This document shows, piece by piece, positions 23,225 through 60,800 of a stretch of DNA of 64,000 bases. The notes beneath the pieces are model-generated. The model saw only the letters and a program-made list of their open reading frames with translations, ran no database searches and was not told the origin of the DNA. The DNA is taken from NCBI GenBank assembly GCA_000165345.1, contig CM000433.1, positions 832,001 to 896,000 on the forward strand, given 5' to 3'. Numbering within the stretch: position 1 is the stretch's first letter; each line of letters starts with the position of its first letter. The position numbers were made by a program, and so were the translations under genes.

Positions 23225-23563
23225 TATAAAAAACTTTATTTTACATTTGATAATGAAGATAATATAATATTAGTTAATTGATTCAGTTGTGTTGTCAAAA
23301 ATTACTATTTACCGGTTTTACAGGAAATTTTCCATTAAAAAAAAAAAAAATAATTTTTATTTCGTTACCGTAAATACCGGTATAAAGGGTACCGATAAAA
23401 TAATTTGATTAATCAACTTGAGGGAAAAAAAATTTTTCTGTATTGAAGAAAAAAAAAGAAATATATATTTTAATTATCTTTTAACTTTAAAGCTTTATAT
23501 GGGTATTTGAACTTGTTTATATATTTTATATCAATTTTTTTTAAAGAATTTATATATTATAAC

Positions 23564-24727
23564 ATGAATGAATGCGATTTTGAGCAAAAATCTTTAATAA
23601 TAGAAAAAACATTTTCAAAAACACCGTATATAGCTTACAATTTAGAGCCCTTAAACCATTCAAATCCTGATGACAAACAAACATATATTGCATTGTCCAA
23701 TTTAAATGGTAAGAGTTACTATGTAGAAGTTTTAATATATAATAGTGAAAGTAACGACCTTGAAATTGGATATTTATATGATCATATTTTTAGTCCAGTG
23801 GGTGGAGTACATTGGATGCCTAGAAATGAAGTTAACCTTGAAGAAAGTATACTTGGAACAGCTAGTGATAGTATAAGACTCTTTAAAGAAGGAAATTTGA
23901 TTTGTGATTTAAGGCTTAAAGACTTAGAGTTAAATAGTATGCGCTTAGAGAATGTATATAACTCATATCACACAAAAATAACCAGTTTTTCATTTTCAGA
24001 ATATATTGAGGGAGATATAGTTTCTTCAACATTGGATGGAAGGTGTATAATTTGGAGTGTTGATGAAGCAGAACAAATAAAATATTCAAAAGGAGCTATT
24101 TTAGAGAATTTGTTAAATGAATATAAGAGTAGATCTATTCTCAGTATTTCTCAAATGGAGAATTTTACAATAATGGATGTTTGTTTTGGTTATTCCAAAG
24201 ATAATATCATAATAGGAGTAAACAATGGACTTGCAGTTTCTATGGATTTAAGATCTCCTTTTAAACAATCATCCTCACTATTGGCAGATTGTATTTTAGG
24301 GTGGGACACAATTCCAGAACAGAAAATTTCACATACTAAATTATGCTGTATTAAAAATACAAGTTATTTTTGCAGAGGAATTTTATCTAAAGGTATTGTA
24401 GAAATTTTTGATATAAGAAAAACATGTGGTCCATTATTCAAGCTAAATACAAGCAAAACAAATCTAGATTCCTCGGAAAATAATATAGTTTCTATTGAAA
24501 GTAAGAATTCTGAAGAAATACTTATTGCTTATAGCAATGGATTAATCAACACTTTCAATATAAATAAAGAAAATTCATCAAATCCTATTGAATATGAAAA
24601 TAATTTATATACTTACAGCTTTTCATCATTAGATATTTCTAAACAAGTTAATTCTTTTCTTGGAATTTCCAGTGTACACATGCAAAATAATACCGGTATA
24701 AAAATTTCAAAATATGCTAAATGTTGA
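23564..24727 (+). CDS. WD40-repeat protein, probably DCAF7/WDR68 (AN11)-like
   Basis: WD-repeat signature G-D-I-V-S-S-T-L-D-G-R-C-I-I-W-S-V-D. The N-terminal layout (YIAYNLEP...YIALSNLNG...YVEVLIYN...HIFSPVGGVHWMP) parallels WDR68 as I recall it. The first ATG is at 23564; the track ORF begins at an alternative TTG (23507). Confidence 0.6.
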   Translation: MNECDFEQKSLIIEKTFSKTPYIAYNLEPLNHSNPDDKQTYIALSNLNGKSYYVEVLIYNSESNDLEIGYLYDHIFSPVGGVHWMPRNEVNLEESILGTASDSIRLFKEGNLICDLRLKDLELNSMRLENVYNSYHTKITSFSFSEYIEGDIVSSTLDGRCIIWSVDEAEQIKYSKGAILENLLNEYKSRSILSISQMENFTIMDVCFGYSKDNIIIGVNNGLAVSMDLRSPFKQSSSLLADCILGWDTIPEQKISHTKLCCIKNTSYFCRGILSKGIVEIFDIRKTCGPLFKLNTSKTNLDSSENNIVSIESKNSEEILIAYSNGLINTFNINKENSSNPIEYENNLYTYSFSSLDISKQVNSFLGISSVHMQNNTGIKISKYAKC

Positions 24728-33808: not shown

Positions 33809-34910
<1,102 letters not shown>

Positions 34911-35265
34911 GAACTTTTGTAAAAATCTAAAAACTGAAACAATTAATGATAATACTATTTTTCGACTAAAAAGAGTTTAATAACAGTGCAGACAATGAAA
35001 GTAACCCGTAATATTAAAAAAATCCTATAAAATTGTTTAATTCAAATTAACTTGTTTATACATAATTTTCTTTCTTGCAATTGTGTGTGCGTGGCGCCAA
35101 TCAGAATTATTTCTATACCGATACCACGTTTGGCGGCAACAGCTATCAATAAAAAAAAAAAGGAAGAGATTGCTAATATATAGATCAGCTTTTGACACAG
35201 TATAAAGTAAAAGAATATTTGTTTTTCAGATTATAATAATTTTATGTATATTGTTTCTATTCTGA

Positions 35266-35829: not shown

Positions 35830-37695
35830 TTAATTCATTGAATAATGATTAATTAGTTGAGGAAATACTCTGTTATCTAATGTCTTGACATTATTTAGTT
35901 CCACAAGTATACTTATATGTCTAGAATTATCTATTCTTGGAGTTATTGTAATATAACCCGATACACCTCCAACAACTTTAAGAAGTTGATCGTCAGGAGA
36001 CTTAATATGCAATATTGTCTGCTTCCAATGTGTTGGTTCGTGAAATGGAGAAGTTTCCATATCAACTTTTTTGAATTGAGAATAAAATTCTGCATTGAAT
36101 GAAACAACTAAAGAAGTAAAGAATGAAAATTCATCTGAAAGCTCTATTTTAAAAGGTTGTCTTAAATTTGATAATTCTTGACTTGTAATATCTAAAATAG
36201 GTAAACTTGGAAGATCATATACATTTTTACAACGTAATCTTTCTACTGGAACAATCTCAACATATGGAGTTGATAATAGTACTGATAATTTTGGAGATAT
36301 CTCCGAAAGATCCAAATTATAAAGTCTATTATTATTCCAAGGACTTACTAAACTGTCGATAGAATCAGAATAATCTGCCAGCGAAATTTGTAATCTAACA
36401 GAAGAAGGAAAAATATGACCAGAAAATTTCCCATCATTAATCTTTAAATATCTATTTCTAGCGTCTAATATGGTATATAACATACTTTCATATAATAAAC
36501 AATATCCCATCCATTCTGAAATTATTATATCACATTTAAATGGTACTGAATCTTTTGGAGGTAGATCATTCTTTGAAATTGAAATCACTTTATTTTCTAC
36601 AATAAATAAACTTAAATCTTCAAACTTTCCACATATAAAATGAATTTTATTCCCTAAATTATTAGCTTGAGCAATTTTTTCTGCTATTTTAATGGTATCT
36701 TTTGCAGCATCAACAGCAACTACCATTTTGGCTCCACTTTTTACTGCAAATAAACTAAGAATACCAGTACCAGTACCAACATCTAGTACAATTTTATCTT
36801 TAAATAAATTAATTGAATTATTTGGATCAGTAATAAAGTTATAATAAGCATCTGTTCTGACTTTATCCAAAATCATTTCTCTATGAATATCTAAAGTAGA
36901 ATAAGAGCTAAAGTAAGGAGTATCTTCATTCTTAATTTTATTTTTAATAATAGCATCAATGTCATTCAGTTCTTTATCAAGCTTTGGTTTTAATGTTTCA
37001 GATTCTTTTTCTGATAAATCTAATAGTTTTTTTGAAAGCTCATGTGGAGAAACTGTTATTGAAGTACTCTGCTCAGAAGCAGTAGATATTCTACTACATG
37101 GGGATGGATATGGATCTTTTTTAGAATCAAATTCCAATGACTCTTTATTTTGAAATTCTGATATCAAATCTGCCATAAACTTAATTTTTTGTTTTAATAA
37201 TTTGTTTTCTTCTTCAATAGAAAGTTCGCAAATAACATTTGGATTTCTCTCTTCTTCTTGGATATATTCTTCGTTAAGAGTATCTAATTCTAAAATCAAT
37301 CTATCATCATTCAAAATTGGAGTTAATAGTGAGTCATCGTTCCATATTTTACCATCCTTTTTAATATGTTCATACTCTTTCTTAGGATCTAATCCATTAT
37401 TGGCACATTTCCTTAAGTAATTAATCAATCTAATTTGATCATATTCTTCCTTTCCATCAGTTTCTTTAGAAAAGTCAAATTCATGTTGTATTTTCATATG
37501 ATTCCAAATTTCTTCAGTCAAATTTGAGCTGGAATCACAAAATAAACACTTTGCTTCTGAAAGAGATTCAAATTCTTGTAGATATGAATTATACTCTAAT
37601 AGTTCAACATCATCTTCGCTAATCTGTTCATCATCACTAGTATTAATGTCATTTATAATAATTGAAACTTTCTCTTGATTATATTTTCCTGACAT
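35830..37695 (-). CDS. PRMT: Protein arginine N-methyltransferase, PRMT3-like (N-terminal C2H2 zinc finger plus class I methyltransferase core)
   Basis: V-L-D-V-G-T-G-T-G-I-L-S-L-F-A-V-K-S-G-A (motif I), I-I-S-E-W-M-G-Y-C-L-L-Y-E-S-M-L (double-E loop) and T-H-W-K-Q-T (THW loop). The N-terminal C-L-F-C-D...H-M-K-I-Q-H is a PRMT3-type zinc finger. The track ORF extends to 37818 from an alternative TTG; the first ATG (MSGKYNQ) is at 37695. Confidence 0.85.
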   Translation of the reverse strand: MSGKYNQEKVSIIINDINTSDDEQISEDDVELLEYNSYLQEFESLSEAKCLFCDSSSNLTEEIWNHMKIQHEFDFSKETDGKEEYDQIRLINYLRKCANNGLDPKKEYEHIKKDGKIWNDDSLLTPILNDDRLILELDTLNEEYIQEEERNPNVICELSIEEENKLLKQKIKFMADLISEFQNKESLEFDSKKDPYPSPCSRISTASEQSTSITVSPHELSKKLLDLSEKESETLKPKLDKELNDIDAIIKNKIKNEDTPYFSSYSTLDIHREMILDKVRTDAYYNFITDPNNSINLFKDKIVLDVGTGTGILSLFAVKSGAKMVVAVDAAKDTIKIAEKIAQANNLGNKIHFICGKFEDLSLFIVENKVISISKNDLPPKDSVPFKCDIIISEWMGYCLLYESMLYTILDARNRYLKINDGKFSGHIFPSSVRLQISLADYSDSIDSLVSPWNNNRLYNLDLSEISPKLSVLLSTPYVEIVPVERLRCKNVYDLPSLPILDITSQELSNLRQPFKIELSDEFSFFTSLVVSFNAEFYSQFKKVDMETSPFHEPTHWKQTILHIKSPDDQLLKVVGGVSGYITITPRIDNSRHISILVELNNVKTLDNRVFPQLINHYSMN

Positions 37696-38004
37696 ATTTA
37701 TAAATTTACTGCCAACAATATATAACTTTGAAATAAAAGTAATTGTTCTTTTAAACCAACTTAAATCATATAATATATAATCTAACTTTTTATTTAACGA
37801 GCTTATTTCCAAAAACAATAGATTAATTTATAGTTGTATTAATAGTGTAAATACTGCTTCTATTGCTAATAATACGTTCACAAGTCTAATTATTAATATT
37901 CTACTGTTCTTTTCTCTCCTCGTTCAATTTCTTGTTTTCTTGATTTTTTTCTTCTCTCCACTAAATAATGTCAAAATATTACAATATTTCATCTGCATTT
38001 CCCA

Positions 38005-44712: not shown

Positions 44713-46044
44713 ATGCCAAGAGAAGTCAGCATATACAAAAGTCCTATAAAGACTTTGAATCTTGCATTGCTATTTTGCTATGAAGTAGTATGTAAAATAA
44801 TTGTGGAATTGTTTACAAAATGGTATAAACACATTTTGATATTATTTGGAATTACTTTGACAATAATGGGATTAAGTAATTTAAATGAAAAATTAGGAGA
44901 GCTAATTCATAATTACATTTACGTTAATATTTTGAATGGAATTTGGTGGATTGGATTGGGGTTTTTGAGTTCAGTAGGACTTGGTTGCGGCATTCATACT
45001 GGATTATTGTTTTTATTTCCTCATGTTTATTCAATAATTACTACAGCTGAAAGATATAACACATTGAATTTTGACCCAAGGCAAAATATGTGGAGTAATT
45101 TATTGAACCCAGGAGATTTATTTATAGTAAATGATTTAGGTTCAGATGGATCATCAATCAGTCTATTTAACATATTATTAAAGATTCTCCCATATGCATT
45201 TTTATGGGGTTTTGGTACGGCTTTAGGAGAGTTACCCCCATATGCAGCAGCATATGCAGCTTCAAAATCTAGAAAAAATAATAGATTAAGAGAGTTAAAA
45301 AGGAGAAAAGAAAATGAAGAATTTGAAGTACAAAACTCTTCAAGTATTGAAAATATTGGGAATGAAGGTTTTGAAATTAATAAGGAGTTACTTCCTGATG
45401 ATGAAAGTACTGAAGATACAAATAATGACTCAAGTATTAAACATTACTTGATGAGTTTAATAAAGAAGTGTATAGTCACATTGATTAATAAGTTTGGTGG
45501 ATATGGAGTCTTTATTTTAAGTTGTTGGCCAAATTTAATGTTTGATTTATGTGGAATCATATGTGGCCATTATTTAATGAATTTTTGGACTTTCTTTATT
45601 CCACTAGTTCTTGGTAAAGGTATAATAAAGGTTTTCTTTCAGACTTTATTATTAATATTCTTATTTTCAAGTAAATTTGAAAATAAGCATGTTGATATTA
45701 TTCTTTGGTTTATTAAAAAATGGCCAATTTCTAAATTTTTTGATAAAGATGAAATTTACCTTAAAGAAACAATTCATAACGAGTTAATTTATATAAAAAA
45801 GACTTTAAGTAATATGAATGAGCAATCTGGAGATCCTATTTCATCATTGAATTCCAATAATATTAGTAAAATAAATAATAACAATTGGTGGGAAGTCATT
45901 ATAAGTAAAATCCAAATTACTTCCTTATTTTCATGGATTACTATTTTTGTTGTTGTTTTATTTGCAATCTCTATCATTAATGAGGCAGCAAAATATCAAG
46001 ATGAAGCCATCAGAAATAAGGAGAACAAAGTTAAAAAGGACTAA
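44713..46044 (+). CDS. VMP1: Vacuole membrane protein 1 (VMP1/EPG-3; DedA/TVP38 superfamily ER scramblase involved in autophagy)
   Basis: W-I-G-L-G-F-L-S-S-V-G-L-G-C-G-I-H-T-G-L-L-F-L-F-P-H..., F-G-T-A-L-G-E-L-P-P-Y-A-A-A-Y-A-A and N-L-M-F-D-L-C-G-I-I-C-G-H-Y-L-M-N-F-W-T-F-F match human VMP1 ([66 protein letters not shown]), recalled. Confidence 0.85.
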   Translation: MPREVSIYKSPIKTLNLALLFCYEVVCKIIVELFTKWYKHILILFGITLTIMGLSNLNEKLGELIHNYIYVNILNGIWWIGLGFLSSVGLGCGIHTGLLFLFPHVYSIITTAERYNTLNFDPRQNMWSNLLNPGDLFIVNDLGSDGSSISLFNILLKILPYAFLWGFGTALGELPPYAAAYAASKSRKNNRLRELKRRKENEEFEVQNSSSIENIGNEGFEINKELLPDDESTEDTNNDSSIKHYLMSLIKKCIVTLINKFGGYGVFILSCWPNLMFDLCGIICGHYLMNFWTFFIPLVLGKGIIKVFFQTLLLIFLFSSKFENKHVDIILWFIKKWPISKFFDKDEIYLKETIHNELIYIKKTLSNMNEQSGDPISSLNSNNISKINNNNWWEVIISKIQITSLFSWITIFVVVLFAISIINEAAKYQDEAIRNKENKVKKD

Positions 46045-48461
46045 AATTTATGGATAACTTTTCATTTTGGATTATTTAGTTTCATTTCTTTTACAATTAT
46101 TGATCTCAGATTATGCGATTGTTCATAATTGATTATAACGCACAAAATTAGGCTCAAAAACTGAGGTTATTAAATATATTTTCTATTTTTAGTATCAATT
46201 CAGATTTTAATTTTAATTATTTAAAAGAGATCACTATTTTTTTAGAAGAGTATACTTGGAAATACATTATATTTCACTTATATACTATTTTTCAAAAGGG
46301 GGAATGTAATAAATTTAATAGTTTGCTTCTCCTTGGAATTACTTTATATTTAACTAATCACTACTTTTTTTTTTGATTTTCAAATTATAATGGGATAATA
46401 TTCATCAAATTCTTTTTTCCTTCGAAGTATTTTCATAAGCCATATTTTACATTATACACAGGGTTTGACAAGGCACTTTGTTTCGAGATTAACCTTGTAT
46501 TATAGTTAAAGAAATTATCTAAAAAAAGAAATTTGAATTCATCCTAGTCACTTTTATATATAAATAGAAGAATTATTCAATCTAATTAAAATGTTTAAAT
46601 TATTTTACGTATTATGCAATTTCCGCCCCACATAATTCTTATCAATTTCTATGATTTTTTTTTTTAAAGTTTACCATTATTCTTTAAAAGGAATATGGCG
46701 CCTAAAATAGCAGGCGGGCCCTGCATTTGACTTAAAGAGCGAAGACAGATATTTCCAGTAATTAGTGGGAATAATAATTAAAAACGTGGTAGTTTTAGAA
46801 GAGAAAATCGAGTATTTTCTTTTTATAGATCGAGTGTTGCATTATATATGTACATATATATATTATATTAAGAGAGAGAGACTATTTTATTAGGTTTCTT
46901 ATTGACTGGAATAAAAATAGAGCTAGATAATTACTACTGGACTGCGTACTTTTATTTTTTATACTATTTTTAAAGTATTTAGCAGAGTAAATTGAATTTT
47001 GTTGCAGATTTAAAGGGTGGAAAATCATTAATATTAAAAGCTATTAAGAACAAGTTTGAGGGATTTGTTTTTTTATTGAAAATAATAAATTATATTTGGA
47101 TATATATATATTTCTTCAGAATAGAATAATTTAACCACTTGTTAGTATATAAAGAAAAGAATAACTTGAAGTGAATTTTGTTATTTTTTTCTTATATAGT
47201 TGTATTTGGCTGGTTTTTTCCTGTATTTTCTTAAAAAGTCTACATTTTTGGAAAAGTTGAGACCAAATTGTTCAAATACTTTAAGAGTTTGTATTAGAAC
47301 AGATATATCGAATATAAATATTTTAAACAATGGCAAAATCTTACTCAACTAAATCTAAAGGAAGAGGTTCGTTGAAATTTGAAATACTCATCTTACGTTT
47401 GTTTCCTTCTTTTTTAAGAAATTCTTGTAATTGCAGTTAATTGGTTGGCTACATTATAGATTTTTTTTTTGTTTCTGGAATATATTAGAGATATTTCAAC
47501 GGAAAGAATTCGATTGACTTTTGGTGGCTTTTGTTTTCATCCTCTTTCTTTGCATTTTATTTTTCTTTTGAACTTATCCAATGAAATGTGATATTTCAAA
47601 TATTTTACCCTCTATTATTTTGGTCTCTTTCTCACTCTAGCTCAATATGGGAGATATCATTAATAAAGTGTAAAGTATTCTGGAATCATTGGAACGCTTG
47701 GGTGGTTGAATTAGAAGTTTGGGATTTGCAGGAAATTGTTAATGAAATCATTGACTTGCCGTATAAATTATGGGATGCGTTTATTCAGACAACCAAGTGG
47801 GATATATAAAATTAATAAAATAAACGTGATTATTTACTATCCTCACATTTTCTATACTCTAATTCATGTTATTGTTGATCTTTTGTATTTTAAATAAGAT
47901 CATTTACAGCTATCAGCAGAGAGTCATCTTTCTTTCCACTAACGCATTTTTCTCTTTCAATTCTACTATGAAGTGGAAAAAAAATGCTATTTAAAATTGG
48001 AATTCATAGTTTTTGGTAGGGCATATTGAATATATTTAATCCATTCAAATCAAAAAGAAAAAAAATTGGCATTTTTAAGCTATACATGCATTGGCGATAT
48101 GATAGTTTTTCTATTACGTCATTCATGTATTTTGAATACCGGTATTTGTGTGCAAAGTTGTGGGGATTTGGCACGATTTTTTTTTTTTTTCATTTGGTTT
48201 AATTTTGGGTATTATATTTTAATATTTTTCATTCTTTTAGGCTTGAATGAAATTATATTACGAATTATGGATTAAAGTAATTTAATACTACTCTTTAATT
48301 GGGGATATTAATGGAAATGATTTAAGTCAATTCAATCGTATTTCTTATTCCTATTTGCGAACAATTCCACAGTTATGTATACTATTAATGTAGTTTAATG
48401 GAGCCATACTAAATTAATATTTATTGCAATTCTAGAAAAAAAGAAGAAAGCAAAACGTGCA

Positions 48462-49332
48462 ATGTGTATATATACAAGTATCATTAACTGACTTTTTTTT
48501 TTTTTTTTGAACATTATAGGTCAATCTCGCACTAATTCAAACTCTACAAGACGTATTGTCAGACTTGGTAACACAAATTTATCAAATTCGAGAAATACTT
48601 TGAACTCCGCAAATGGTAGCTCAAAGTCTAGAGTGATTAGAGGCCAAGGCGGTAGGAGAGTCAATACCAGCTTTGATAATCTCAATAGAAGGAAATTAGC
48701 ATCTTCCAGAAACTCCACTAATAGAGGCTCTTCACTTTCTAACAATGCAAGAAACAGAAAGGGAAGCATTGGGCGCTTTAATTCTTCTGGAAATTCAGGT
48801 GCCATTAGAAGAGGAGGTAGTGGTAGTGGAGGTAGGGGAAGAGGATTTAGAGGTAGGAACAGTGGTTCTAGAACATCATCTAGAGGAAGAGGAGGCGCAT
48901 CTGGAGGATTTAGAGGAACTAGACGCCCCCAGAAGAATAAAAACAGTACAAGCACAGCGTCATTGGTAAGTTATTTTTTTCTTTGAAGAAGTTCTATGGA
49001 ATTCCACATCCATTTTTTTTTTAATGGACTGGTTATAGCGCATGGCGCCAAATGTGGGATTACGGAATACAATTTCTCAACTATATTAACTTTTCACAAT
49101 TTCTTCCCCCTTCAAAAAAAAAAAAACTATATATATTATTTTTGATTTTTTTTCTAATAAACAGGATGCAGCATTAGACTCGTATATGGGAGCAGATGTT
49201 TGCAAGGCACGATTAGATTCACAATTAGATTCATACTTTTCTGGACAAAGTACTGGAAATGATAGCATGGTAACCGGCGACTCTTCGATGAATGTGGAGA
49301 GTAATCAGGAGCCAGTTTTGATCTCACTATAG
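48462..49332 (+). CDS. RGG/RG-rich protein with C-terminal FoP-duplication / UAP56-binding-type motifs (CHTOP / Friend-of-PRMT1 / ALY-REF-like, no RRM), three exons: 48462-48465 (ATGT), 48520-48965, 49165-49332
   Basis: Exon 2 lacks an ATG and is preceded by a poly-T tract plus TATAG acceptor. The proposed micro-exon 1 is ATG+T followed by a GTATAT donor, a 54-nt intron and a CTGAC branch-like site. Exon 2 ends at a GTAAGT donor (48966) and exon 3 follows an AACAG acceptor (49163-64). The product is rich in RGG/RGR/SRGRGG and ends with two L-D-S-Y-M / L-D-S-Y-F motifs resembling the E-L-D-A-Y-M motif of ALYREF and CHTOP C-termini. The exon 1 assignment is uncertain. Confidence 0.6.
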
Positions 49333-49446
49333 AAGAATATTAGTAAAAAGCTTTTGATAATTAATTCAACGGCAAGATACTTTGAAAAAAAAAATTGCAA
49401 CGCATGTATAGGTGGATAAATAGTAATAATACATATTAATAAAACT

Positions 49447-50717
49447 CTATTCTTGATTAATTGGTATTTCCTCTGAGAAAAGTGCACTATTATGATCATC
49501 AATGTTGTTAGAATCATTGAAATCATTAGGTTCTTGTTCATAATCAGAGGTCTCTAACTGATGATCGGAATTATTGTCCATATGGTTTGTGTAAATGTCA
49601 CTAATCTTTCTATCTAGTTGGTTGTTATTATCATTGTTATTGTTGTTATAGAGCTTTACATCTTCATCTCCATAAATACAATCATTTTGGATATATAATT
49701 CGTTATCAATTTCACATTCTTTTTGTCTTGTTTCAATGTCTGTTTCCGATTTATATTGGTCCTCGATTTGATCTTGTTCTTTTTGATTTTGTTCTTCTTG
49801 ATCCTGCTCTTGCTCTTGATTAAGAACAGGATTTTGATTTTGGTGTTGATAATCACTTTCTAAATTTTTATCGTGATTTTTACTTTGTTCAATTTCGTCA
49901 ATAGTTTCAGTATTTACTTCTAACTCATTTGAATGAATCTCAATATGACGTTCATTTGGTTCAATCTTGGATTTTAATTCGTCCATATTAGTATCATCAA
50001 TGGTACTCAAAGTATTATTATTTGGATAAATTATATCGCTTTTATAAAAATCTGGAACATTTTCTTCTGAAATTTCATTTTCATTAATTTCCTTATATTT
50101 TTTAACTGGAAATGAAGAATTTGAGAGTAAAGAATTGCCATTCTCAGTTGATATAATAACCTAATAAAATTAATTATTTAAATTTCAATAGTAATTTAAT
50201 GGGATCTATTTAAAAAAAAAAAAAAAAAACTTACATCTTTGATAATAATATTTCTTATAGCGTTAAAATAACTTTGCCAAAATATACTCTCGGACATTCT
50301 ACTTGGTACTAATTCATATCTAATATTATTTAATTCATCCATTTGTGAAAGTAATGCTGCTGCCCATTCTGCAAAAGGAATAATACAATCTGGATCATCT
50401 TCGTCTAGAGAAAATCCTTGTATTCTTGATACCGGACAATTTGTTAAAAATACTTGCTTATTCAATGTTAAGCTTTGAACCTTTTCTTTAATACTTTTAT
50501 AGTTCCATTTCAAAACAGTATTTGTAGGTAGTTCTTCGCTCGACCATTGAACAATATGAAACCATGGAAAAACATTATCTTGCATTGTTTCTGATTAATT
50601 AAATTAATATTGGTTATTAAAACTTTTAAAATTATTCATTCAAAACTCACCATCAAAATCCTTCATTTCTAACTCCATTTCTTGGGTTAAATCTTCCACA
50701 CTTTCAACAATTCCCAT
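49447..50717 (-). CDS. BSD-domain-containing protein with a long acidic Asn/Asp/Glu/Gln-rich tail, three exons: 50717-50651, 50590-50235, 50160-49447
   Basis: On the minus strand, ATG at 50717, a GTGAGT donor (50650-45) and an ATCAG acceptor (50592-91) join phase 1 to the ORF 50196-50585 (S-E-S-I-F-W-Q-S-Y-F is the BSD F-W signature). A GTAAGT donor (50234-29) and a TTATTAG acceptor (50162-61) then join phase 0 to the ORF that continues as 49447-50010. The N-terminus MGIVES fits an N-myristoylation consensus. Confidence 0.65.
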
Positions 50718-52307
50718 CTTTTTATACTTGCTAGATTAATATTAAGTTATTTTATTTTCCTTCTGAGTGATTCTGATCCTATTTACTTTAAAATATTAAT
50801 TGATCATAATAAGCATTCAAAAACTCTTAATATTTCTACCTTTCTATTATTAATAAATTACTTATTATGACTTTAAGCCTAGCAAATAATTTGTGTTGTA
50901 TTTTGTTTCAATTTATAATTAGAATTTATATTACCGATATTTCCTCTTCAAACACTTTCTATTGAAAACTATTAGAAAATATCCAATCAATAGATTCTAA
51001 AGGAAAACTTTCAATATTTTCTGTTTACTCAAATCCCATATAAATCTATCGATTTTTTTTTCTACTTTAATTAATTTTTTTCATTAAATATTATACAAAT
51101 TAAAATACACAATTTTTACCGCCATTTTTAATTATTTATTTTCCTTTATAACCACAAAATTTCATTAATGTCAAACATATGATCTTTTTTTTTTTTTAAT
51201 ATTTCATAAAAATTTTCATTTTTTAAATACAAAACCGATATAAAAACTCTATTGGTTTAAATTTTATAATTAATTACCTTCCAAAGTAAATTTTTTTTTC
51301 TAATTAATTAATGCAATAAGTGTTTTCTACTTTTATTTACATGTAATTTAATTAATAAACAAAAATATTGAATGTTCCCGCCTTTTTTCTTTTAAAATAA
51401 TAAATAAATATAAAGTAATTTATTTATGAATGTTAAATACATTGTGCGTTGAAGGGTTATATTATTAATAATAATATATTAAAAATTGAAATTAAACGAG
51501 GATAATAAAAAAGTTATTTATAAGAAAACATCATTATTGGATTATATAATAATTAAATTTTTAATAAAATGATTGATCCAGGTATGTATAAAAAGTATTC
51601 CTAAAATTTATATTCAAGGGAAATATATTTTTATTAAGAAAAAATGACTTTCTTTAAATAACATTTGCACTATTATCTCATATTCAGTATATACAATTTC
51701 GGTTTTCCTTATTTTATGCTTTTGTTCGCTATTTATTTACATAATATATGTAAACAATTTACTAAAAGAAAGAGATTCATCTAAAAGACAAAAAAGAAGA
51801 GTAAGTTAACAAATAATGTATACTTTATATGAATTTAAAATTTACATTGTATTAACCAATTTTTTAAATATAGAAACCAAGAAGAAAAGACAGAGAGTAT
51901 TGGAGTATAGATGAGTAAATAATTTAAATTACAAACATTTACTTTTTTTTTTATCGTTTCAAGATTTTGTCTATGAATCTATTAGATAATTCGCAAGACA
52001 TTTTTCAACTACTTGATTAAATAATAATAAACAATTTATTTAGGTAAAACTAATTAATATTTCATTCTAAAAAAGAGTATGTATCGAGTTTGGAGGAAAA
52101 AATAACTAGAATTTTTTTCATTAATTATTTCGTGTTTAGAATTTCAATGTATTAAACAACATAAATGTCCAGTTTCCATAAATACTGCCTATAATAGTAT
52201 ATTACTACATATTAATCTATTCACAGCTACCAAATCAACAAATATATATAAATTTATTAATAAAAAATTTCTATATAATTTTAATTTACTTCTAAAAATA
52301 GAACCCA

Positions 52308-52685: not shown

Positions 52686-55574
52686 ATGTCAATAAAGCTA
52701 CGCGAACTAATTAGACAAGTTAGAAACTGCAAAACGGCAGCAGAAGAAAGGTCTATAATTTCAAAAGAATGTGCCCATATCAGAGCACTTTTTAAAGAAG
52801 ATGAAAATCAATATAGACAAAGAAATATTGCAAAATTATTATTTATTCATATGCTTGGATATCCAAGTCAATTTGGACAAGTTGAATGCTTAAAACTAAT
52901 TGCTAGCAATAAATTTTGTGAAAAAAGAATTGGATATCTTGCGATTTGTCAATTATTAGATGAAGATTCTGAAATTTTATTGCTTGCAACCAATAGTATC
53001 AAGAATGATCTGAATCACTCAAACCAATATATTAATGGACTTGCACTCTCTGCTATAGCTAACACAGCTCCTAAAGAGATGTGTAGAGCAGTTTTTAGAG
53101 AAGTTAGTGAACTTTTACTAGTTGGGAACCCATTCATCAAGAAAAGAGCATTACTTGCATCAGTACATATTATTCGAGTTCTTGAAGATGCAGAAATTGA
53201 GTCATTTATTAACTGTATTCCTTCTTTACTTGAAGATAAGCATCATGGAGTTCTTTTAGGTACTTGTCATATGATTAATTCAATAATACAATATCATCCT
53301 GAACATATTGAAGCTTTAGGACCTTTTGTACCTTTATTAGTAAAAATATTAAACACAATAAGTATGGCAGGATATCTTAATTCTATGGAATATGATAATG
53401 GAGGAGTCACAGACCAATTTCTACAAGTACATATACTAATTACAATTGGTGATCTCAGAACTGTTATTGCAGATGATATTAAAGAGAATATTTGTGCCGT
53501 ATTAGCTCAATTATTGACTAATACTGATCATTCCAAAAATGGCGGGAATTCTATTTTATATGAATCTGTTAGAACCATTATTAAATTATTACCATATATT
53601 AATGAGGATGGATTATATATGTTAGCTGTTAATACGGTAACAAAATTCTTACAAAATACTGATTTAAATATCCGTTTTGTTGCCCTTGGTTTATTAGAAA
53701 ATATGAAAGAATTTCCAAATAACTCCAGTACTTGTTCAATAGTCTCAAATGTTAATGAGAGCTTAACTGGAAATAATGACAACAGTAATAATGAAACTGC
53801 GCATGCAGGTTTGGCGCCACATCATGCATTAATTTTAGACTGTTTGAAAGATTCTGACTCGTCAATTAAACTTAGGGCATTAAAAGTTTTGTTTTCTGTA
53901 ATAAATGAAAACAATATAAAGACTTTTATTAAGGACTTATTGAATGCATTATTGATTTCAACAGAAAATGAAGAAATTGATTTTTCTATAGAATTAGCAA
54001 CAGGAATGTGTATTGCGGTAAGGAAATGTAAGCATTTAACCCCACAGTGGTATATTGATACTTATATTAAACTATTTTGCTTGGCTGGAAATATTATTAA
54101 AGAAGAAGAAAGGGATTACTTTATTTCTTACCTTTCTTCTTTAAGTGATTCAAGCATTCATTCATATACTGTCAAAAAGTTATATTTATCATTATTATCA
54201 AGAAATGACCAAATTTTACTAATTCAAGTTACTTTATGGGCAATTGGCGAATATTCTCAGCATCTATTTACTAATAATAATGGAATTGGCTCTTTTGAAG
54301 AACAAAAATCTTTAGATACCTCAGAAATTGATATCTCTGAAGAATCTGTTATGAGTTTAATTGAAAATATTTTAGTTTGTAATTCAAGGGAAATGTCAAA
54401 TAGTAACTACTCATTATCAATATCAGGAATCAATAATTTATGCATTGATTATTCTCATCCAATAAAAGGAGTTGGAACTTATGGCTCTATTAGCTCTATA
54501 GAAACTACAATCAACTTTGCATTAGTAGCTTTGATCAAAGCTAGTATTCGACTCAAGACCCAAAAAAATAAGATACTACAGCTTATTCAGAGTCAAGCAT
54601 CATCTCCATCAGTTGAAATACAACAAAGAGCTTTAGAATATATACAAATTTTGAATTCTAACTGGGATTCTAACCGAAGTCAAATTCTTAACCCTATTCC
54701 AGTATTTGATCTTTCAAATCTTTACTCTAATGAAACTAGAACAAACAGCTATATTAATCTCAATGCCTATAACTCTCCAAAAAATACTAAGAATGAAAAT
54801 ATAAATAACAAATCTAATGATAATACCCTTGTAACAGATCTTTTAGACCTTGATTCTAATATTAATGAAGTAACAGGTAATACAAGTACTAATAATATTA
54901 ACAATTCTAAAGTTGAATCGACTAATGGAAACATCCTGGACTTATTTGACACTATAGCCAGTAATAATACAAAGACTAATCACATCGATTTTAATGCAAA
55001 TGATTCTATGGCTCCAGTTTCTAAAATTGATCCTGTTTTAACTATCACTCATAATAATTCTGGTAACAGTAATAACAACTTACTTAATTTTAATGATAAT
55101 AAACCTACAATAACTACCAAGAGTTCTCCATTTGAGGATCTTATTGACTTTAATAAGCTTGATTTATCTTCTTCACACTCTTCTTCAATTCAAAATAATA
55201 ATTTAAATTCTATTGAAACTATTAAAATTTATGAAAACAAGGATATTAGAATCACATTTGATATATCCAAAAACAAATTCAACCAAAGAGAAACCAACTT
55301 CACTGCAAAGTATTTCAATATTTCTGATGTAGATATATCAAACTTTAAACTAGAAATTGCTGTTCCAAAATATCTTAATATTCAGCTTGAAACTGCCTCT
55401 AGCAACTACCTTCCTTCTAATAACTTCAATCATCCAGCAAAACAAGAAATTAAAGTTACCAAAAATGGAGATGAAAATAATCAAATACTTATGAAGCTTA
55501 GAATTAACTATCTTATCAACAATAACCAAGTTACCGAATATTCGAATGTAAATAATATTCCCAGCAAATATTAA
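52686..55574 (+). CDS. AP1G: AP-1 adaptor complex gamma-adaptin large subunit, with an Asn/Ser-rich hinge and C-terminal ear
   Basis: The N-terminal [73 protein letters not shown]...K-R-I-G-Y-L-A is nearly collinear with human AP1G1 ([29 protein letters not shown]...[31 protein letters not shown]). Single 962-codon exon. Confidence 0.9.
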   Translation: [962 protein letters not shown]

Positions 55575-59308: not shown

Positions 59309-59540
59309 ATTTCAAGCTTCCTATATTATTTTACCATATAAAAAAAAGTGTTTTATTATTTTAAATTTTTTTCCATTCAATTTTATATTACGTGTACATT
59401 TTATACCGGCATTTCATTAAATGACGTAATAATTATTTTCTTATTTTGACATGTAACTCCGGTATTAATTTTTATCCACATGCGGGAAATTCAAATTAAT
59501 AATGAATTTAAAAATAGTATTAAAATAATAAAAGTAGAAT

Positions 59541-60800
59541 TTGATGAATAAATTTGAAAATGGTTTGGAACATGTAAAATTAAGGATTTCTAATATTGAA
59601 GATGAAATATATAATATAACAGAGTTGAGAGAAAGAAATATTATTGAGAAGGAGAAATTAGAAGATGAAATATATGAAATTATTGAAATTGAAAAAATAC
59701 TATCAGAGCTTTATGATGAATTGTACAGAATTTCAAATTTCCATGAGGCTAATAATGTTTTAATTACTAGAGCTTTTGAAGAGAAATTGGTGAAAATATT
59801 TAAAGAGTATTACTCAAATAAATTAGAGAATTTAAATAACATTAATTTTTTAGACTATGAACAAATTAAATATAGTTATCAAAATTCCAGATTATCATTA
59901 ATTAATGAGTTGAAAACTAATTTTGGGCAAGATTTGCTGAAGATTGAAGTTTTGAATAATATTATTAAAAAATTAATCGCGTCAAATGAGAAAATCTTTT
60001 ATGCTATATTCAAAGTTGAAGATTTATACAAAATACTTTTGTGCTTTATATATACAGATTTTTTGATTTGGGATCCTTTTTCAGATTCTCCAAATACTGA
60101 TTTACTTTCTTTTTCAAGCATCATCAATGATGTATTAAAACAAGATGGTGTAACTACTTTGAATGTAAGTTTTTTTAATACTGAAAAGCTTGTGGAAAAA
60201 TTATATCTTGAAAAGCTCATGAATTATATTTGTGAAATAGTAAAACTGTATTGGACTCCTTTTTATTTCAAAGAAACAGAGAAATTTGTTAAATCTATAA
60301 GAAATGTTAAAGATATTCTTGAAATTGATATGTCAGAAGTTGTGTCCGAACTCATGAATAAACTTCAAGATAATTTTAATTTTTTGATTTCAGAGAGTTT
60401 TTTAAAACCCGAAAATGAATTTAAGTTTGTATTACTGATCTTAAATTGGGCTGCTTCAGTACTCATGGTTACAAAAGCATTTCAAGTAAAACAAGAGTAT
60501 ATTAATTTATTAATAAGCAAGTCCATTCTTCATTTTTCCCAAAACTCGATCCAAAACCACGAAAATAAAAATTTAAGAAAACTACTCTGCGAAACAGAAA
60601 TTGACGTTAAAGAAATCAATGATTATTCAGTAAATGAACAAAAGTTAGATTCCAATATATTATTGAATCCTAAGGTTGCTGGCTTACTAAATATTAATGA
60701 GGTTTTATATCAAATTAAAAACAGCTTTAAATTAAATTTTCCTAAAAAAAAATATATCTTAATTGATATTATATTAGAAATTATATCAAGTTATAATTAA
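59541..60800 (+). CDS. Hypothetical Leu/Lys/Glu/Asn-rich alpha-helical protein (419 aa)
   Basis: Uninterrupted ORF, not recognisably similar to a known family. Confidence 0.5.
   Translation: MMNKFENGLEHVKLRISNIEDEIYNITELRERNIIEKEKLEDEIYEIIEIEKILSELYDELYRISNFHEANNVLITRAFEEKLVKIFKEYYSNKLENLNNINFLDYEQIKYSYQNSRLSLINELKTNFGQDLLKIEVLNNIIKKLIASNEKIFYAIFKVEDLYKILLCFIYTDFLIWDPFSDSPNTDLLSFSSIINDVLKQDGVTTLNVSFFNTEKLVEKLYLEKLMNYICEIVKLYWTPFYFKETEKFVKSIRNVKDILEIDMSEVVSELMNKLQDNFNFLISESFLKPENEFKFVLLILNWAASVLMVTKAFQVKQEYINLLISKSILHFSQNSIQNHENKNLRKLLCETEIDVKEINDYSVNEQKLDSNILLNPKVAGLLNINEVLYQIKNSFKLNFPKKKYILIDIILEIISSYN

Follow-up and report, generated by a model that had tools for sequence, protein, structure and literature searches.

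An RGG-encoding exon in the 64,000-nt stretch of DNA analysed here (the window), which is Cryptosporidium parvum sequence identical to CP044418.1, raises the question of where the corresponding gene begins, whether the exon downstream belongs to it, and what its product and its long non-coding segments might do. We consider it very probable that the locus is the C. parvum gene for an intrinsically repetitive 216-aa RGG protein with a C-terminal FoP duplication domain of the CHTOP type and no RRM, with a probable role as mRNA-export adaptor. The gene is an ordinary one, already annotated and from a known family; what needed correcting was the start in an earlier model. The C. parvum genome is 77% coding with spacers of ~0.5 kb, and this locus measures 3.3 kb, of which 20% is coding. 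The features discussed below are collected in Table 1.

Table 1. Features of the FoP/CHTOP-like locus and its surroundings, in window coordinates
Feature	Position	Strand	Description
Upstream E2F box	46696-46703	.	TGGCGCCT; 627-634 nt before the start codon; followed by GGCGGG (46714-46719)
Conserved upstream block	46725-46775	+	...AAGAGCGAAGACAGATATTTCCAGTAATTAGTGGGAAT; just downstream of the E2F box; nearly invariant in five intestinal species (alignment)
Exon 1	47330-47366	+	37 nt; ATG GCA AAA TCT TAC TCA ACT AAA TCT AAA GGA AGA G, encoding MAKSYSTKSKGR plus the first base of a Gly codon
Intron 1	47367-48519	+	1153 nt; non-consensus donor GTTCGTTG; branch-point-like TTAACTGAC (48484-48492); T16 (48493-48508); acceptor TATAG
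Conserved 5' segment of intron 1	47367-47450	+	GTTCGTTGAAATTTGA...CATCTTACGTTTGTTTCC...TTGTAATTGCAGTTAATTGG; from alignments
Island A in intron 1	47495-47700	+	Conserved, non-coding; from the identity profile
Island B in intron 1	48110-48160	.	TTACGTCA (48114-48121), palindrome ATACCGGTAT (48136-48145) and GTGTGCA; conserved in 5-6 species
Proposed 4-nt first exon	48462-48465	+	ATG-T, donor GTATAT at 48466; rejected as a conserved start
Exon 2	48520-48965	+	446 nt; Ser/Asn/Arg-rich and RGG/RG-rich, including GGRRVNTSF and RGGSGSGGRGRGFRGR...RGRGGASGGFRG; no in-frame ATG
Intron 2	48966-49164	+	199 nt; donor GTAAGTT, acceptor AACAG (CAG ending at 49164)
Intronic E2F box	49043-49050	.	Perfect copy of palindromic TGGCGCCA, GGCGCC at 49044-49049; followed by conserved AAATGTGGGATT
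Exon 3	49165-49332	+	DAALDSYMGADVCKARLDSQLDSYFSG... and acidic/polar tail; two LDxxLDxY[MF] repeats; stop TAG at 49330-49332
PRMT3-like arginine methyltransferase ORF	35830-37818	-	Identified by Pfam domains; not considered linked by position

A conserved 37-nt first exon lies upstream of the RGG exon

The RGG exon is open over its whole length without a single in-frame ATG, and the earlier expectation that it needs an upstream exon was thus borne out. We compared nine loci, those of C. parvum, C. hominis, chipmunk genotype I, C. ubiquitum, the species represented by SRR31860986, C. canis, C. felis, C. ryanae and C. andersoni. An exon equivalent to 47330-47366 was found in all nine, always with a length of 1 mod 3 and with the pattern M-x-[KR]-S-[YF]...[KR] followed by a final G and a near-invariant GTTCGTT donor. 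This donor sequence (GTTCGTTG after the final G) was identical in eight of the nine species and read GTTTGTTG in C. ryanae. Annotations of C. parvum (three assemblies), C. hominis, C. canis and C. andersoni begin at the position equivalent to 47330, and the exon-1 peptide runs contiguously into the rest of the protein both in the C. andersoni protein and in an intron-free contig of a relative. Judged from this conservation, the real first exon is 47330-47366, 1.15 kb upstream of the RGG exon.

Together with the RGG exon and the exon downstream, this start gave a reconstructed gene of three exons (47330-47366, 48520-48965 and 49165-49332). The range 47330-49332 with a 216-aa product is annotated in three C. 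parvum assemblies, and the equivalent annotated products have 216 aa in C. hominis, 201 aa in C. canis and 199 aa in C. andersoni. Start, end and product length alone fit 3 two-intron and 532 three-intron arithmetic solutions for the C. parvum annotation; because the exon set is not unique on these grounds, we relied on conservation and on the C. andersoni protein, which maps exactly onto three exons with a first intron of 611 nt. The reconstructed three-exon models matched all annotated starts, ends and lengths, those of C. hominis and C. andersoni with homologous acceptors. An exact look-up in the protein collection gave no match for either C. parvum model (216 aa or 205 aa) or for the C. 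hominis and C. canis reconstructions, and so did not separate the models. Conservation of exons, phase and splice signals across the nine species supports both predicted splice junctions. The 5' ends in the automated annotations of chipmunk genotype I, C. ubiquitum, C. felis and C. ryanae are wrong; in one of these four, chipmunk genotype I, the last intron is also missing from the model, by which the sole recognisable domain is lost.

Both exon junctions have a competing gene model. The original prediction placed the start at ATG 48462, with a 4-nt exon, a 54-nt intron (48466-48519) and a 205-aa product (MCQSR...). The strings on which it was built are present, namely ATG at 48462-48464, T at 48465, GTATAT at 48466-48471, T16 at 48493-48508 and TATAG ending at 48519, with a branch-point-like TTAAC and the T16 tract upstream of the acceptor, and exactly this start is used in the automated chipmunk genotype I annotation. 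However, it is one of 23 in-frame combinations of the form ATG...(3n+1)/GT within the 2.4 kb that precede the RGG exon, no excess over chance, and it is not kept in three relatives: the ATG is missing in C. ubiquitum, C. canis has no GT donor and the SRR31860986 species has only the poor donor GTCCGA. The chipmunk genotype I annotation is the only one sharing the model, and it is demonstrably incomplete, as intron 2 is left unspliced there and the FoP domain is lost, whereas the 47330 exon is conserved in 9/9 loci and used by four other annotations. In addition, several ATGs in 48200-48460 would come earlier on any transcript initiated within the intron. We therefore regard a start at 48462 as very improbable and replaced the 4-nt exon with the exon at 47330. 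At the other end of the gene, exon 49165-49332 might belong to a transcript of its own, initiated from the intronic E2F box and coding only for a 48-aa peptide (MGADVCKARLDSQLDSYFSG...), since the box lies 115 nt upstream and ATG 49186 opens a 48-aa ORF. Against this, the invariant SLDAALD straddles the junction, joining the exons adds 23 bits to the Pfam match, and the GTAAGTT donor, the acceptor and the phase are kept in nine species, even in those without the box. A separate last-exon transcript is hardly credible on these data, and the three-exon gene is the model used below.

The splice between 48965 and 49165, and with it a last intron of 199 nt, was upheld by the same profile evidence. 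The PF13865 match was contiguous across the junction, scoring 55.5 bits for the spliced sequence. Exon 3 by itself scored 32.7 bits, and exon 2 continued into the intron gave no match; the domain profile is complete only when the exons are joined. The intron is conserved in nine species, in each case at the position directly before the DAALD[ST]YMG codons.

The protein carries a FoP duplication domain and no RRM

The product is an RGG-rich FoP/CHTOP-like protein, as proposed, with an RG-rich stretch and a positive match to Pfam PF13865. In the HMM search with FoP_duplication (PF13865) that had been suggested for this protein, the match covered profile positions 2-80 of 81 with 55.5 bits against a cut-off of 24.6 (E = 9e-15). 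PF13865 was matched by 9/9 orthologues, with a best E of 2e-18. Membership in the FoP_duplication family is shown by the HMM. Exon 2 substitutions relative to chipmunk genotype I fell 11/7/45 by codon position, a strong third-position bias.

Exon 3 encodes DAALDSYMG...RLDSQLDSYFSG. The two L-D-x-Y-M/F motifs previously noticed in the last exon were confirmed as LDxxLDxY[MF] repeats: LDAALDSYM and LDSQLDSYF stand in tandem near the C-terminus, preceded by RGRGGASGGFRG, and the repeats, as well as the residues SLDAALD.YMG...CKARLDSQLD.YFS, are invariant in nine sequences. The predicted absence of an RRM also held, with no RRM match in the protein at E<=10 and none in the ORFs of the locus. In their source annotations, the orthologues from C. 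felis and C. andersoni bear the name 'Chromatin target of PRMT1 protein(-like)'. In homology and profile searches, all relatives came from Cryptosporidium except for one gregarine protein, the word-index search being ill-suited to low-complexity proteins, and a PDB sequence search gave a low-complexity match only.

These features align the protein with two groups of export factors. CHTOP/FoP, the chromatin target or Friend of PRMT1 and a metazoan TREX co-adaptor, is likewise small and without an RRM, and shares the central RG/RGG region, the C-terminal LDxxLDxY[MF] duplication and PF13865. Outside the FoP module, in contrast, no similarity to CHTOP was detectable; the Cryptosporidium protein has the N-terminus MAKSY... 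and a conserved acidic/polar tail, D..M..E..QEP.MI.L. With relatives reached only in Cryptosporidium and one gregarine, the protein is at most a putative orthologue of metazoan CHTOP. The PF13865 family also covers the C-termini of ALYREF/REF/Yra1, and these proteins share with the Cryptosporidium protein the RGG boxes and a C-terminal LDxxLDxYM motif of the UAP56-binding type. They differ in having a central RRM, found neither in the Cryptosporidium protein nor in the locus ORFs, and UAP56-binding motifs at both ends, whereas the Cryptosporidium N-terminus (MAKSYSTKSKGRG) has no LDxxLD motif and no UBM.

The original prediction also pointed to a PRMT3-like gene ~11 kb away. The gene exists: its ORF matched PRMT_C with 50.7 bits (cut-off 27), Methyltransf_25 with 36.4 bits and PrmA with 38.7 bits. 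Its N-terminal part (residues 90-141) scored 23.3 bits against zf-C2H2_2, below the cut-off of 26.9. The distance has no evident meaning, and a functional link through 11 kb of separation was rejected as having no known basis where, as in this eukaryote, such genes are not organised like an operon.

Upstream and intronic E2F boxes

E2F is the commonest promoter motif in C. parvum (PMC3734150, PMC12246861). Within the window, GGCGCC occurred 12 times against 0.32 expected (~37-fold), and all 12 copies were part of the full TGGCGCCW octamer; nine lie in 5' intergenic regions and one each in a convergent spacer, in a CDS and in intron 2. The copy upstream of exon 1 at 46696-46703 is the probable promoter of the FoP/CHTOP-like gene, and a GGCGCC/GGCGCG box was present at the equivalent upstream position in 8/9 loci, with none found in C. 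ryanae. The block at 46725-46775 probably represents the core promoter or else the first part of a long 5' UTR. Transcription most likely begins close to the conserved E2F/GGCGGG module at ~46700, from which a 5' UTR of ~0.6 kb would follow.

The E2F-like box reported in the last intron is a genuine TGGCGCCA. Its position required a small correction, as the 21-mer GCGCATGGCGCCAAATGTGGG that contains it lies at 49038-49058 and not at 49036-49056. The box at 49043-49050 matches the definition 5'-[A/T][C/G]GCGC[G/C][A/T]-3' / TGGCGCCA (PMC12246861, PMC3734150). Thus it shares the exact octamer of the Cryptosporidium E2F/DP promoter motif, of which the box at 46696 is a second copy at this gene; it differs in that the motif is usually 5' intergenic, whereas the 49043 copy is intronic and near the 3' end of the gene. 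The intronic box is kept in 5/9 species (C. parvum, C. hominis, chipmunk genotype I, C. ubiquitum and the SRR31860986 species), is degenerate (GGTGCC) in C. canis, and has no counterpart in the second intron of C. felis, C. ryanae and C. andersoni. Conservation in five of the nine species argues for function, and TGGCGCCA in intron 2 seems to be under selection in the C. parvum clade. Most likely the box acts at the DNA level as a putative intragenic E2F site, either as an enhancer of its own gene or as a promoter of antisense RNA.

Intron 1 is long and contains conserved blocks

With exon 1 at 47330-47366, intron 1 is 1153 nt long. Orthologous first introns measured 611-1193 nt, and four neighbouring introns 57-106 nt with donors GTAAGTT or GTATGTA. 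C. parvum has 1370 introns that make up 1.29% of the genome (PMC9465071); the mean intron length derived from these figures is ~86 nt, and intron 1 is ~13 times as long.

Island A was 78-95% identical to chipmunk genotype I, a level like that of exons, and 45-72% identical to C. ubiquitum; its best windows reached 72-80% to C. ubiquitum and C. canis, whereas the adjacent intron was only 30-60% identical. It showed no codon periodicity, no structure signal, and no Rfam or Pfam match. Island B resembles a promoter module in its motif content. The window contains 12 copies of ATACCGG where 0.89 would be expected, most of them in 5' intergenic positions, and the pairing of ATACCGG with TGACGTAA was also found 80-140 nt upstream of the ATG at 59541.

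RNAalifold with column-shuffle controls gave no signal of conserved RNA structure in the intron 1 blocks on either strand. The 5' segment folded at -3.67 kcal/mol (z = -0.8), not a convincing conserved structure. Exceptions were limited to the ATACCGGTAT palindrome, which forms a 7-bp hairpin, and the 5' UTR block, where the signal was weak. Because the intron blocks show no conserved RNA structure, a regulatory mechanism acting on this intron would have no defined element. Rfam searches of the whole window at gathering thresholds and of 46045-49450 at E<=5 returned a chance-level snoRNA match at 49303-49374 as the sole hit, and ARAGORN gave no match. A hidden coding exon or RRM within intron 1 was rejected, as there was no codon periodicity and no intron ORF matched Pfam. 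An alternative acceptor, TTGCAG (47431-47436), was also rejected, its AG not being kept in the SRR31860986 species.

Alternative roles for the intronic elements

Of the readings that assign these elements to other transcripts, one takes TGGCGCCA in intron 2 as the promoter of an antisense lncRNA running back over exon 2 rather than as a regulator of the sense gene. The motif is palindromic, the box stands 280 nt before the stop codon, and among the motifs in the 100 bp upstream of the 396 C. parvum lncRNAs, a mostly antisense set biased to sense 3' ends, E2F ranks first (PMC7840661). The box cannot be the promoter of the neighbouring gene downstream, which is convergent, and another TGGCGCCA occupies a convergent 3'-3' spacer at 35092. 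The absence of the box in 4/9 species speaks against this reading, which we hold to be less likely than not. Intron 1 might instead owe its length to hosting an independent non-coding RNA gene in island A (47495-47700). The exon-like identity of this block to chipmunk genotype I (78-95%) would fit such a gene, as would the report of 23 intronic ncRNAs in C. parvum, which were suggested to preserve introns (PMC9465071), and island B could serve as its promoter if the RNA came from the minus strand. However, no Rfam match appeared even at E<=5, conserved-structure z values lay between -0.9 and +0.3 on either strand, and no C/D or H/ACA boxes were seen by eye; a hosted RNA gene is improbable in our view.

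A further reading assumes two alternative first exons, with the block at 48110-48160 also driving a shorter transcript that in the lineage of C. parvum, C. hominis and chipmunk genotype I either uses the ATG-T micro-exon or is non-coding. Island B with its TTACGTCA, ATACCGGTAT and GTGTGCA motifs is conserved in 5-6 species, in the same combination as a bona fide promoter at 59403-59465, and over its final 130 nt, where AGCAAAACGTRMAATGT surrounds the 48462 ATG, intron 1 is conserved beyond what a plain intron 3' end requires. On the other hand, the 48462 ATG and its donor are not conserved, and the motif clusters may be enhancers rather than start sites. A putative 30-nt in-frame cassette exon (48436-48465, with the GTATAT donor) was rejected because it is 32 nt long in C. 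hominis, where two extra A's break the frame. Dual first exons are decidedly improbable on this evidence, and the single start at 47330, followed by one long first intron, is the reading that we retain.

A possible export adaptor with splicing-based feedback

From what is known of CHTOP, ALYREF and Yra1, the RGG region would bind RNA and be a substrate of type I PRMTs, and the two invariant LDxxLDxY[MF] repeats would dock the DEAD-box helicase UAP56/Sub2. The FoP protein would then act as a TREX-type mRNA-export adaptor in a lineage in which no REF/Aly homologue was found. In apicomplexans UAP56 is present, a review found no REF/Aly homologue, and a Cryptosporidium UAP56 homologue is listed in its Table S1 (PMC5785795).

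The length of intron 1 (~13 times the mean), its weak GTTCGT donor and its conserved blocks suggest that its removal may be regulated, most plausibly by negative feedback of the protein on its own pre-mRNA. If intron 1 is retained, the reading frame ends after 17-36 codons. The intron of yeast YRA1 is exceptionally long, has non-consensus signals and is used by the gene for autoregulation through splicing. In human CHTOP, intron 2 can stay in the transcript, which NMD then degrades; the gene thereby controls its own level (PMC5175361), and by analogy this behaviour fits the unusually long constrained intron 1 seen here. Possible splicing autoregulation as in YRA1 and CHTOP makes this intron a modestly interesting lead. 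Combining these elements, the FoP protein would be a UAP56-docking export adaptor and its gene a feedback device, in which intron 1 would be poorly spliced at high protein levels to give a truncated, degraded transcript, as in YRA1/CHTOP, and internal or antisense transcription would come in addition from the intragenic E2F and ATACCGGTAT/TTACGTCA modules. We offer this combined model tentatively and consider it on balance unlikely to hold in full.

The conserved 37-nt exon provides a simple correction for four wrong 5' gene models. A constrained 1.15-kb intron with a weak donor and intragenic transcription factor sites is a good place to seek splicing-based or antisense regulation in C. parvum. 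Little is understood of how apicomplexans export mRNA; the conserved RGG protein, with its two invariant motifs of the UAP56-binding type, is a concrete candidate adaptor.

The first exon lies 1.15 kb upstream and is conserved

In the public C. parvum gene table (three assemblies), the gene for the FoP/CHTOP-like RGG protein ranges over 47330-49332 with a product of 216 aa. A first exon of 37 nt, exon 2 (48520-48965, 446 nt) and exon 3 (49165-49332, 168 nt) give exactly 216 codons plus the stop codon. Because the annotated start, end and length also fit other arithmetic exon solutions, the model was tested by comparison with the loci of C. hominis, chipmunk genotype I, C. ubiquitum, C. canis, C. 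felis, C. ryanae, C. andersoni and the species of sequencing run SRR31860986. A short exon encoding M-x-[KR]-S-[YF]-...-[KR] and ending one base into a codon was present in all nine loci, with the donor context GTTCGTTG except in C. ryanae (GTTTGTTG) and C. andersoni (GTTCGTTA). The seven intestinal species share a length of 37 nt, with 49 nt for C. ryanae and 52 nt for C. andersoni; each length leaves the phase that exon 2 requires, and the substitutions between species are synonymous or conservative. The annotated C. andersoni protein (P0005) fits three exons exactly, with a first intron of 611 nt, and our reconstructions agree with the annotated ranges and lengths for C. hominis (216 aa) and C. 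canis (201 aa); for C. hominis and C. andersoni they use the homologous acceptor rather than the first one. In a GC-rich relative (protein P0004, contig L005), the N-terminal peptide MAKSYIIRSRGN... is contiguous with the remaining protein in a contig without introns. According to its authors, the introns of the IOWA-ATCC annotation are 100% RNA-seq-supported (PMC8744675).

The contig of this relative (L005 1-1535, Logan SRR29752142) has about 50% G+C, and its C-terminal sequence is nearest to the C. ryanae group. The orthologue is one uninterrupted ORF of 208 aa with 640 nt upstream and a AGGCGCGA box 5 nt before the ATG; the contig may be cDNA or an intron-less gene.

The original prediction had placed a 4-nt first exon at 48462-48465. 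Every string on which it drew was found (ATG-T with GTATAT after it, a T16 run at 48493-48508 and a TATAG that ends at 48519), and the frame of 48520-48965 is open with no in-frame ATG inside. ATG-T is one of 23 upstream combinations of ATG...(3n+1) and GT that would be in frame. Its ATG is missing in C. ubiquitum, and is followed by TCAC in C. canis and by the poor donor GTCCGA in the SRR31860986 species. We rejected this micro-exon for the annotated, conserved exon upstream. The annotated chipmunk genotype I protein (P0001) is the only annotation with the micro-exon start; it also reads through intron 2, with the result that no FoP domain is recorded, although the genome has a perfect exon 3.

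Ad hoc 5′ ends occur in the public models of chipmunk genotype I (L008:3906-5869, MCQSR...), C. ubiquitum (L011:7515-9501, start L011:8620), C. felis (L009:4171-5793, MKIALTDF...) and C. ryanae (L007:4305-5970, MKGSY...), all without the conserved upstream exon. Elsewhere in the window, a tiny gene of 56 aa (51569-51918, +) has two introns, 51582-51687 (106 nt, GTATGTA) and 51801-51873 (73 nt, GTAAGTT). It opens with an exon of just 13 nt (ATGATTGATCCAG), showing that this genome does contain short first exons.

Features of the FoP/CHTOP-like gene and its flank, in window positions
Feature	Position	Strand	Description
E2F box	46696-46703		upstream of exon 1, with GGCGGG and a block conserved in five species
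Exon 1	47330-47366	+	ATG GCA AAA TCT TAC TCA ACT AAA TCT AAA GGA AGA G, then GTTCGT
Conserved island	first ~90 nt of intron 1	+	identity well above adjacent intron
Conserved island	47495-47700	+	78-95% identity to chipmunk genotype I, on par with exons
Conserved island	48100-48160		identity well above adjacent intron
Conserved island	last 130 nt of intron 1	+	identity well above adjacent intron
E2F box TGGCGCCA	49043-49050		in intron 2; followed by AAATGTGGGATT

The FoP domain spans the junction of exons 2 and 3

An HMM search matched the protein to PF13865 (FoP_duplication) at 55.5 bits against a cut-off of 24.6, over profile positions 2-80 of 81. Exon 3, which encodes DAALDSYMG...RLDSQLDSYFSG, by itself scored 32.7 bits over positions 53-80 only, and exon 2 read on into intron 2 as a control gave no PF13865 match; the domain is thus complete only when 48965 is joined to 49165. 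The predicted last intron of 199 nt was borne out, with the donor GTAAGT at 48966, the acceptor ending at 49164 and PF13865 spanning the junction. As also predicted, an RRM was absent from the protein and from every ORF of the long intron 1. The relatives found were Cryptosporidium proteins and one gregarine transcript, and two of the former carry the source name 'Chromatin target of PRMT1 protein(-like)'. The domain match and these names uphold the FoP/CHTOP-like reading, which is already in the public annotation; the gene is known and annotated.

E2F boxes and the ATACCGG motif

GGCGCC occurs 12 times in the window (0.32 expected from shuffles), always as the full octamer TGGCGCC[A/T], the published E2F motif (PMC3734150, PMC12246861). 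Nine of these boxes lie in 5′ intergenic DNA, one in a convergent spacer, one in the adaptin coding sequence and one in intron 2. The box before exon 1, together with GGCGGG and the conserved block, marks the probable promoter; a promoter at ~46700 implies a 5′ UTR of ~0.6 kb.

The E2F-like box predicted in the last intron is present, but its 21-mer (49038-49058) is shifted rightwards by 2 nt from the predicted position. The octamer and the adjoining AAATGTGGGATT persist in C. hominis, chipmunk genotype I, C. ubiquitum and the SRR31860986 species, within intron sequence that is otherwise much diverged (29-41% identity to the SRR31860986 species). C. canis has GGTGCC, one transition off, and C. 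felis, C. ryanae and C. andersoni have no such box in intron 2. Because it is kept amid diverged intron in some species and absent in others, we infer that the box is under selection in the C. parvum clade and not ancestral to the genus. It is not the promoter of the downstream neighbour, since that gene is convergent. An independent transcript carrying exon 3, the alternative in the original prediction, conflicts with the FoP domain spanning the junction and with splice signals conserved in species without the box. The box may instead be an intragenic enhancer or an antisense promoter. Such unusual positions have two published precedents: the motif ranks first in the sequences preceding antisense lncRNAs, themselves clustered at gene 3′ ends (PMC7840661), and E2F motifs are present in internal spacers of polycistronic transcripts (bioRxiv 10.1101/2025.01.17.633476).

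Perfect TGGCGCCA boxes also lie at 35092-35099, in the 3′-3′ spacer between the dynactin-5 gene (34221-34910, +) and the PRMT-like gene (35830-37818, -), and at 53812-53819, inside the adaptin coding sequence (52686-55574, +). Both are candidate antisense or internal promoters.

ATACCGG occurs 12 times in the window against 0.89 expected (13-fold), mostly in 5′ intergenic DNA. Its sites (13820, 23374-23383, 24690-24699, 30042, 40093, 48136-48145, 50429, 59403 and 59459) often form the palindrome ATACCGGTAT and adjoin E2F boxes at two places (13800, 40103). Since the main text of the 2013 paper on C. parvum upstream motifs (PMC3734150) does not contain the string CCGG, ATACCGG may be an undescribed promoter motif.

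Intron 1 is long and constrained

Intron 1 measures 1153 nt, and its orthologues 1158, 1121, 1166, 1193, 985, 827, 940 and 611 nt. The 1370 introns of C. parvum make up 1.29% of the ~9.1-Mb genome (PMC9465071), from which we computed a mean of ~86 nt. Four other uniquely delimited introns in the window are 57, 68, 106 and 73 nt long, with the donors GTAAGTT (three) and GTATGTA (one); intron 2 of the FoP gene has GTAAGTT too. The intron 1 donor, GTTCGT, is off this pattern at +3 and +4 but does not vary within the genus. If intron 1 is retained, translation stops after 17-36 codons.

Sliding identity against five species delimited four conserved islands in intron 1, which showed no codon periodicity, no conserved RNA fold and no Rfam or Pfam match. 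The block at 48110-48160 holds TTACGTCA, the ATACCGG palindrome and GTGTGCA, and a further pair of ATACCGG and TGACGTAA precedes the ATG at 59541 by 80-140 nt. Given this recurrence and the enrichment of ATACCGG, mostly in 5′ intergenic DNA, the block looks like a regulatory module acting at the DNA level.

The exon 1/intron 1 boundary (47366-47377) and its orthologues share an invariant GGTTCGTTGAA, whose first six bases resemble the tRNA T-arm/Pol III B-box consensus GGTTCGAANCC. The likeness is probably coincidence, since ARAGORN finds no tRNA there.

Genomic setting

G+C across the window is 20-37%, and genes are densely packed. Both the 2003 bases of 47330-49332 and the coding sequence of the intron-less ORF 44713-46044 are identical in three chromosome-scale C. 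parvum assemblies (CP044418.1, CP029784.1 and CP141122.1). The stops of the upstream VMP1 gene (46044) and of the FoP gene are 3.3 kb apart, a stretch with 651 coding bases; in C. parvum, spacers average 504 bp and coding sequence makes up 77% of the genome (PMC7840661; PMC8744675).

The predicted PRMT3-like gene ~11 kb away corresponds to the ORF 35830-37818 (-). This label is fair given its PRMT core, PRMT_C and a sub-threshold N-terminal C2H2 finger. Five or six unrelated genes intervene between it and the FoP gene, and nothing points to the distance mattering.

Downstream of the FoP gene, an acidic and BSD-domain region (49447-51300, minus) is annotated as two genes in C. parvum and C. hominis (~179 aa and 126-163 aa), and as a single gene of 356, 408 and 592 aa in chipmunk genotype I, C. 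canis and C. andersoni, respectively (counterparts in the orthologous loci: L001 10735-12005, L008 5976-7168, L012 9328-10664, L006 6962-8812). One of the two sets of models is probably in error. Farther off, G+C peaks locally (0.37) at 10030-12218, where the GC skew is strongly negative and three long ORFs overlap across the two strands (10030-12015 +, 11210-12007 -, 11262-12218 +), a pattern typical of low-complexity or repeat-rich coding DNA.

Discussion

The analysis demonstrates the family membership, three-exon structure and motif conservation of the gene. As an observation the original prediction was largely correct: the family and the last intron stood, and the 4-nt first exon fell. 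By analogy with CHTOP, ALYREF and Yra1, the RGG region would bind RNA and serve as a type I PRMT substrate, and UAP56/Sub2 would dock at the pair of invariant LDxxLDxY[MF] repeats, making the protein a putative TREX-type export adaptor. A review of apicomplexans found UAP56 and not REF/Aly, with CHTOP not tabulated (PMC5785795); this gives the export-adaptor proposal some relevance here.

More speculatively, the long intron 1 and its conserved weak donor suggest regulated splicing. Yeast YRA1 uses its own intron for negative feedback. Human CHTOP is likewise described as exerting negative feedback through an intron of its own gene (PMC5175361). What remains of interest at the locus is the atypical length and constraint of its intron, together with the transcription-factor sites inside the gene.
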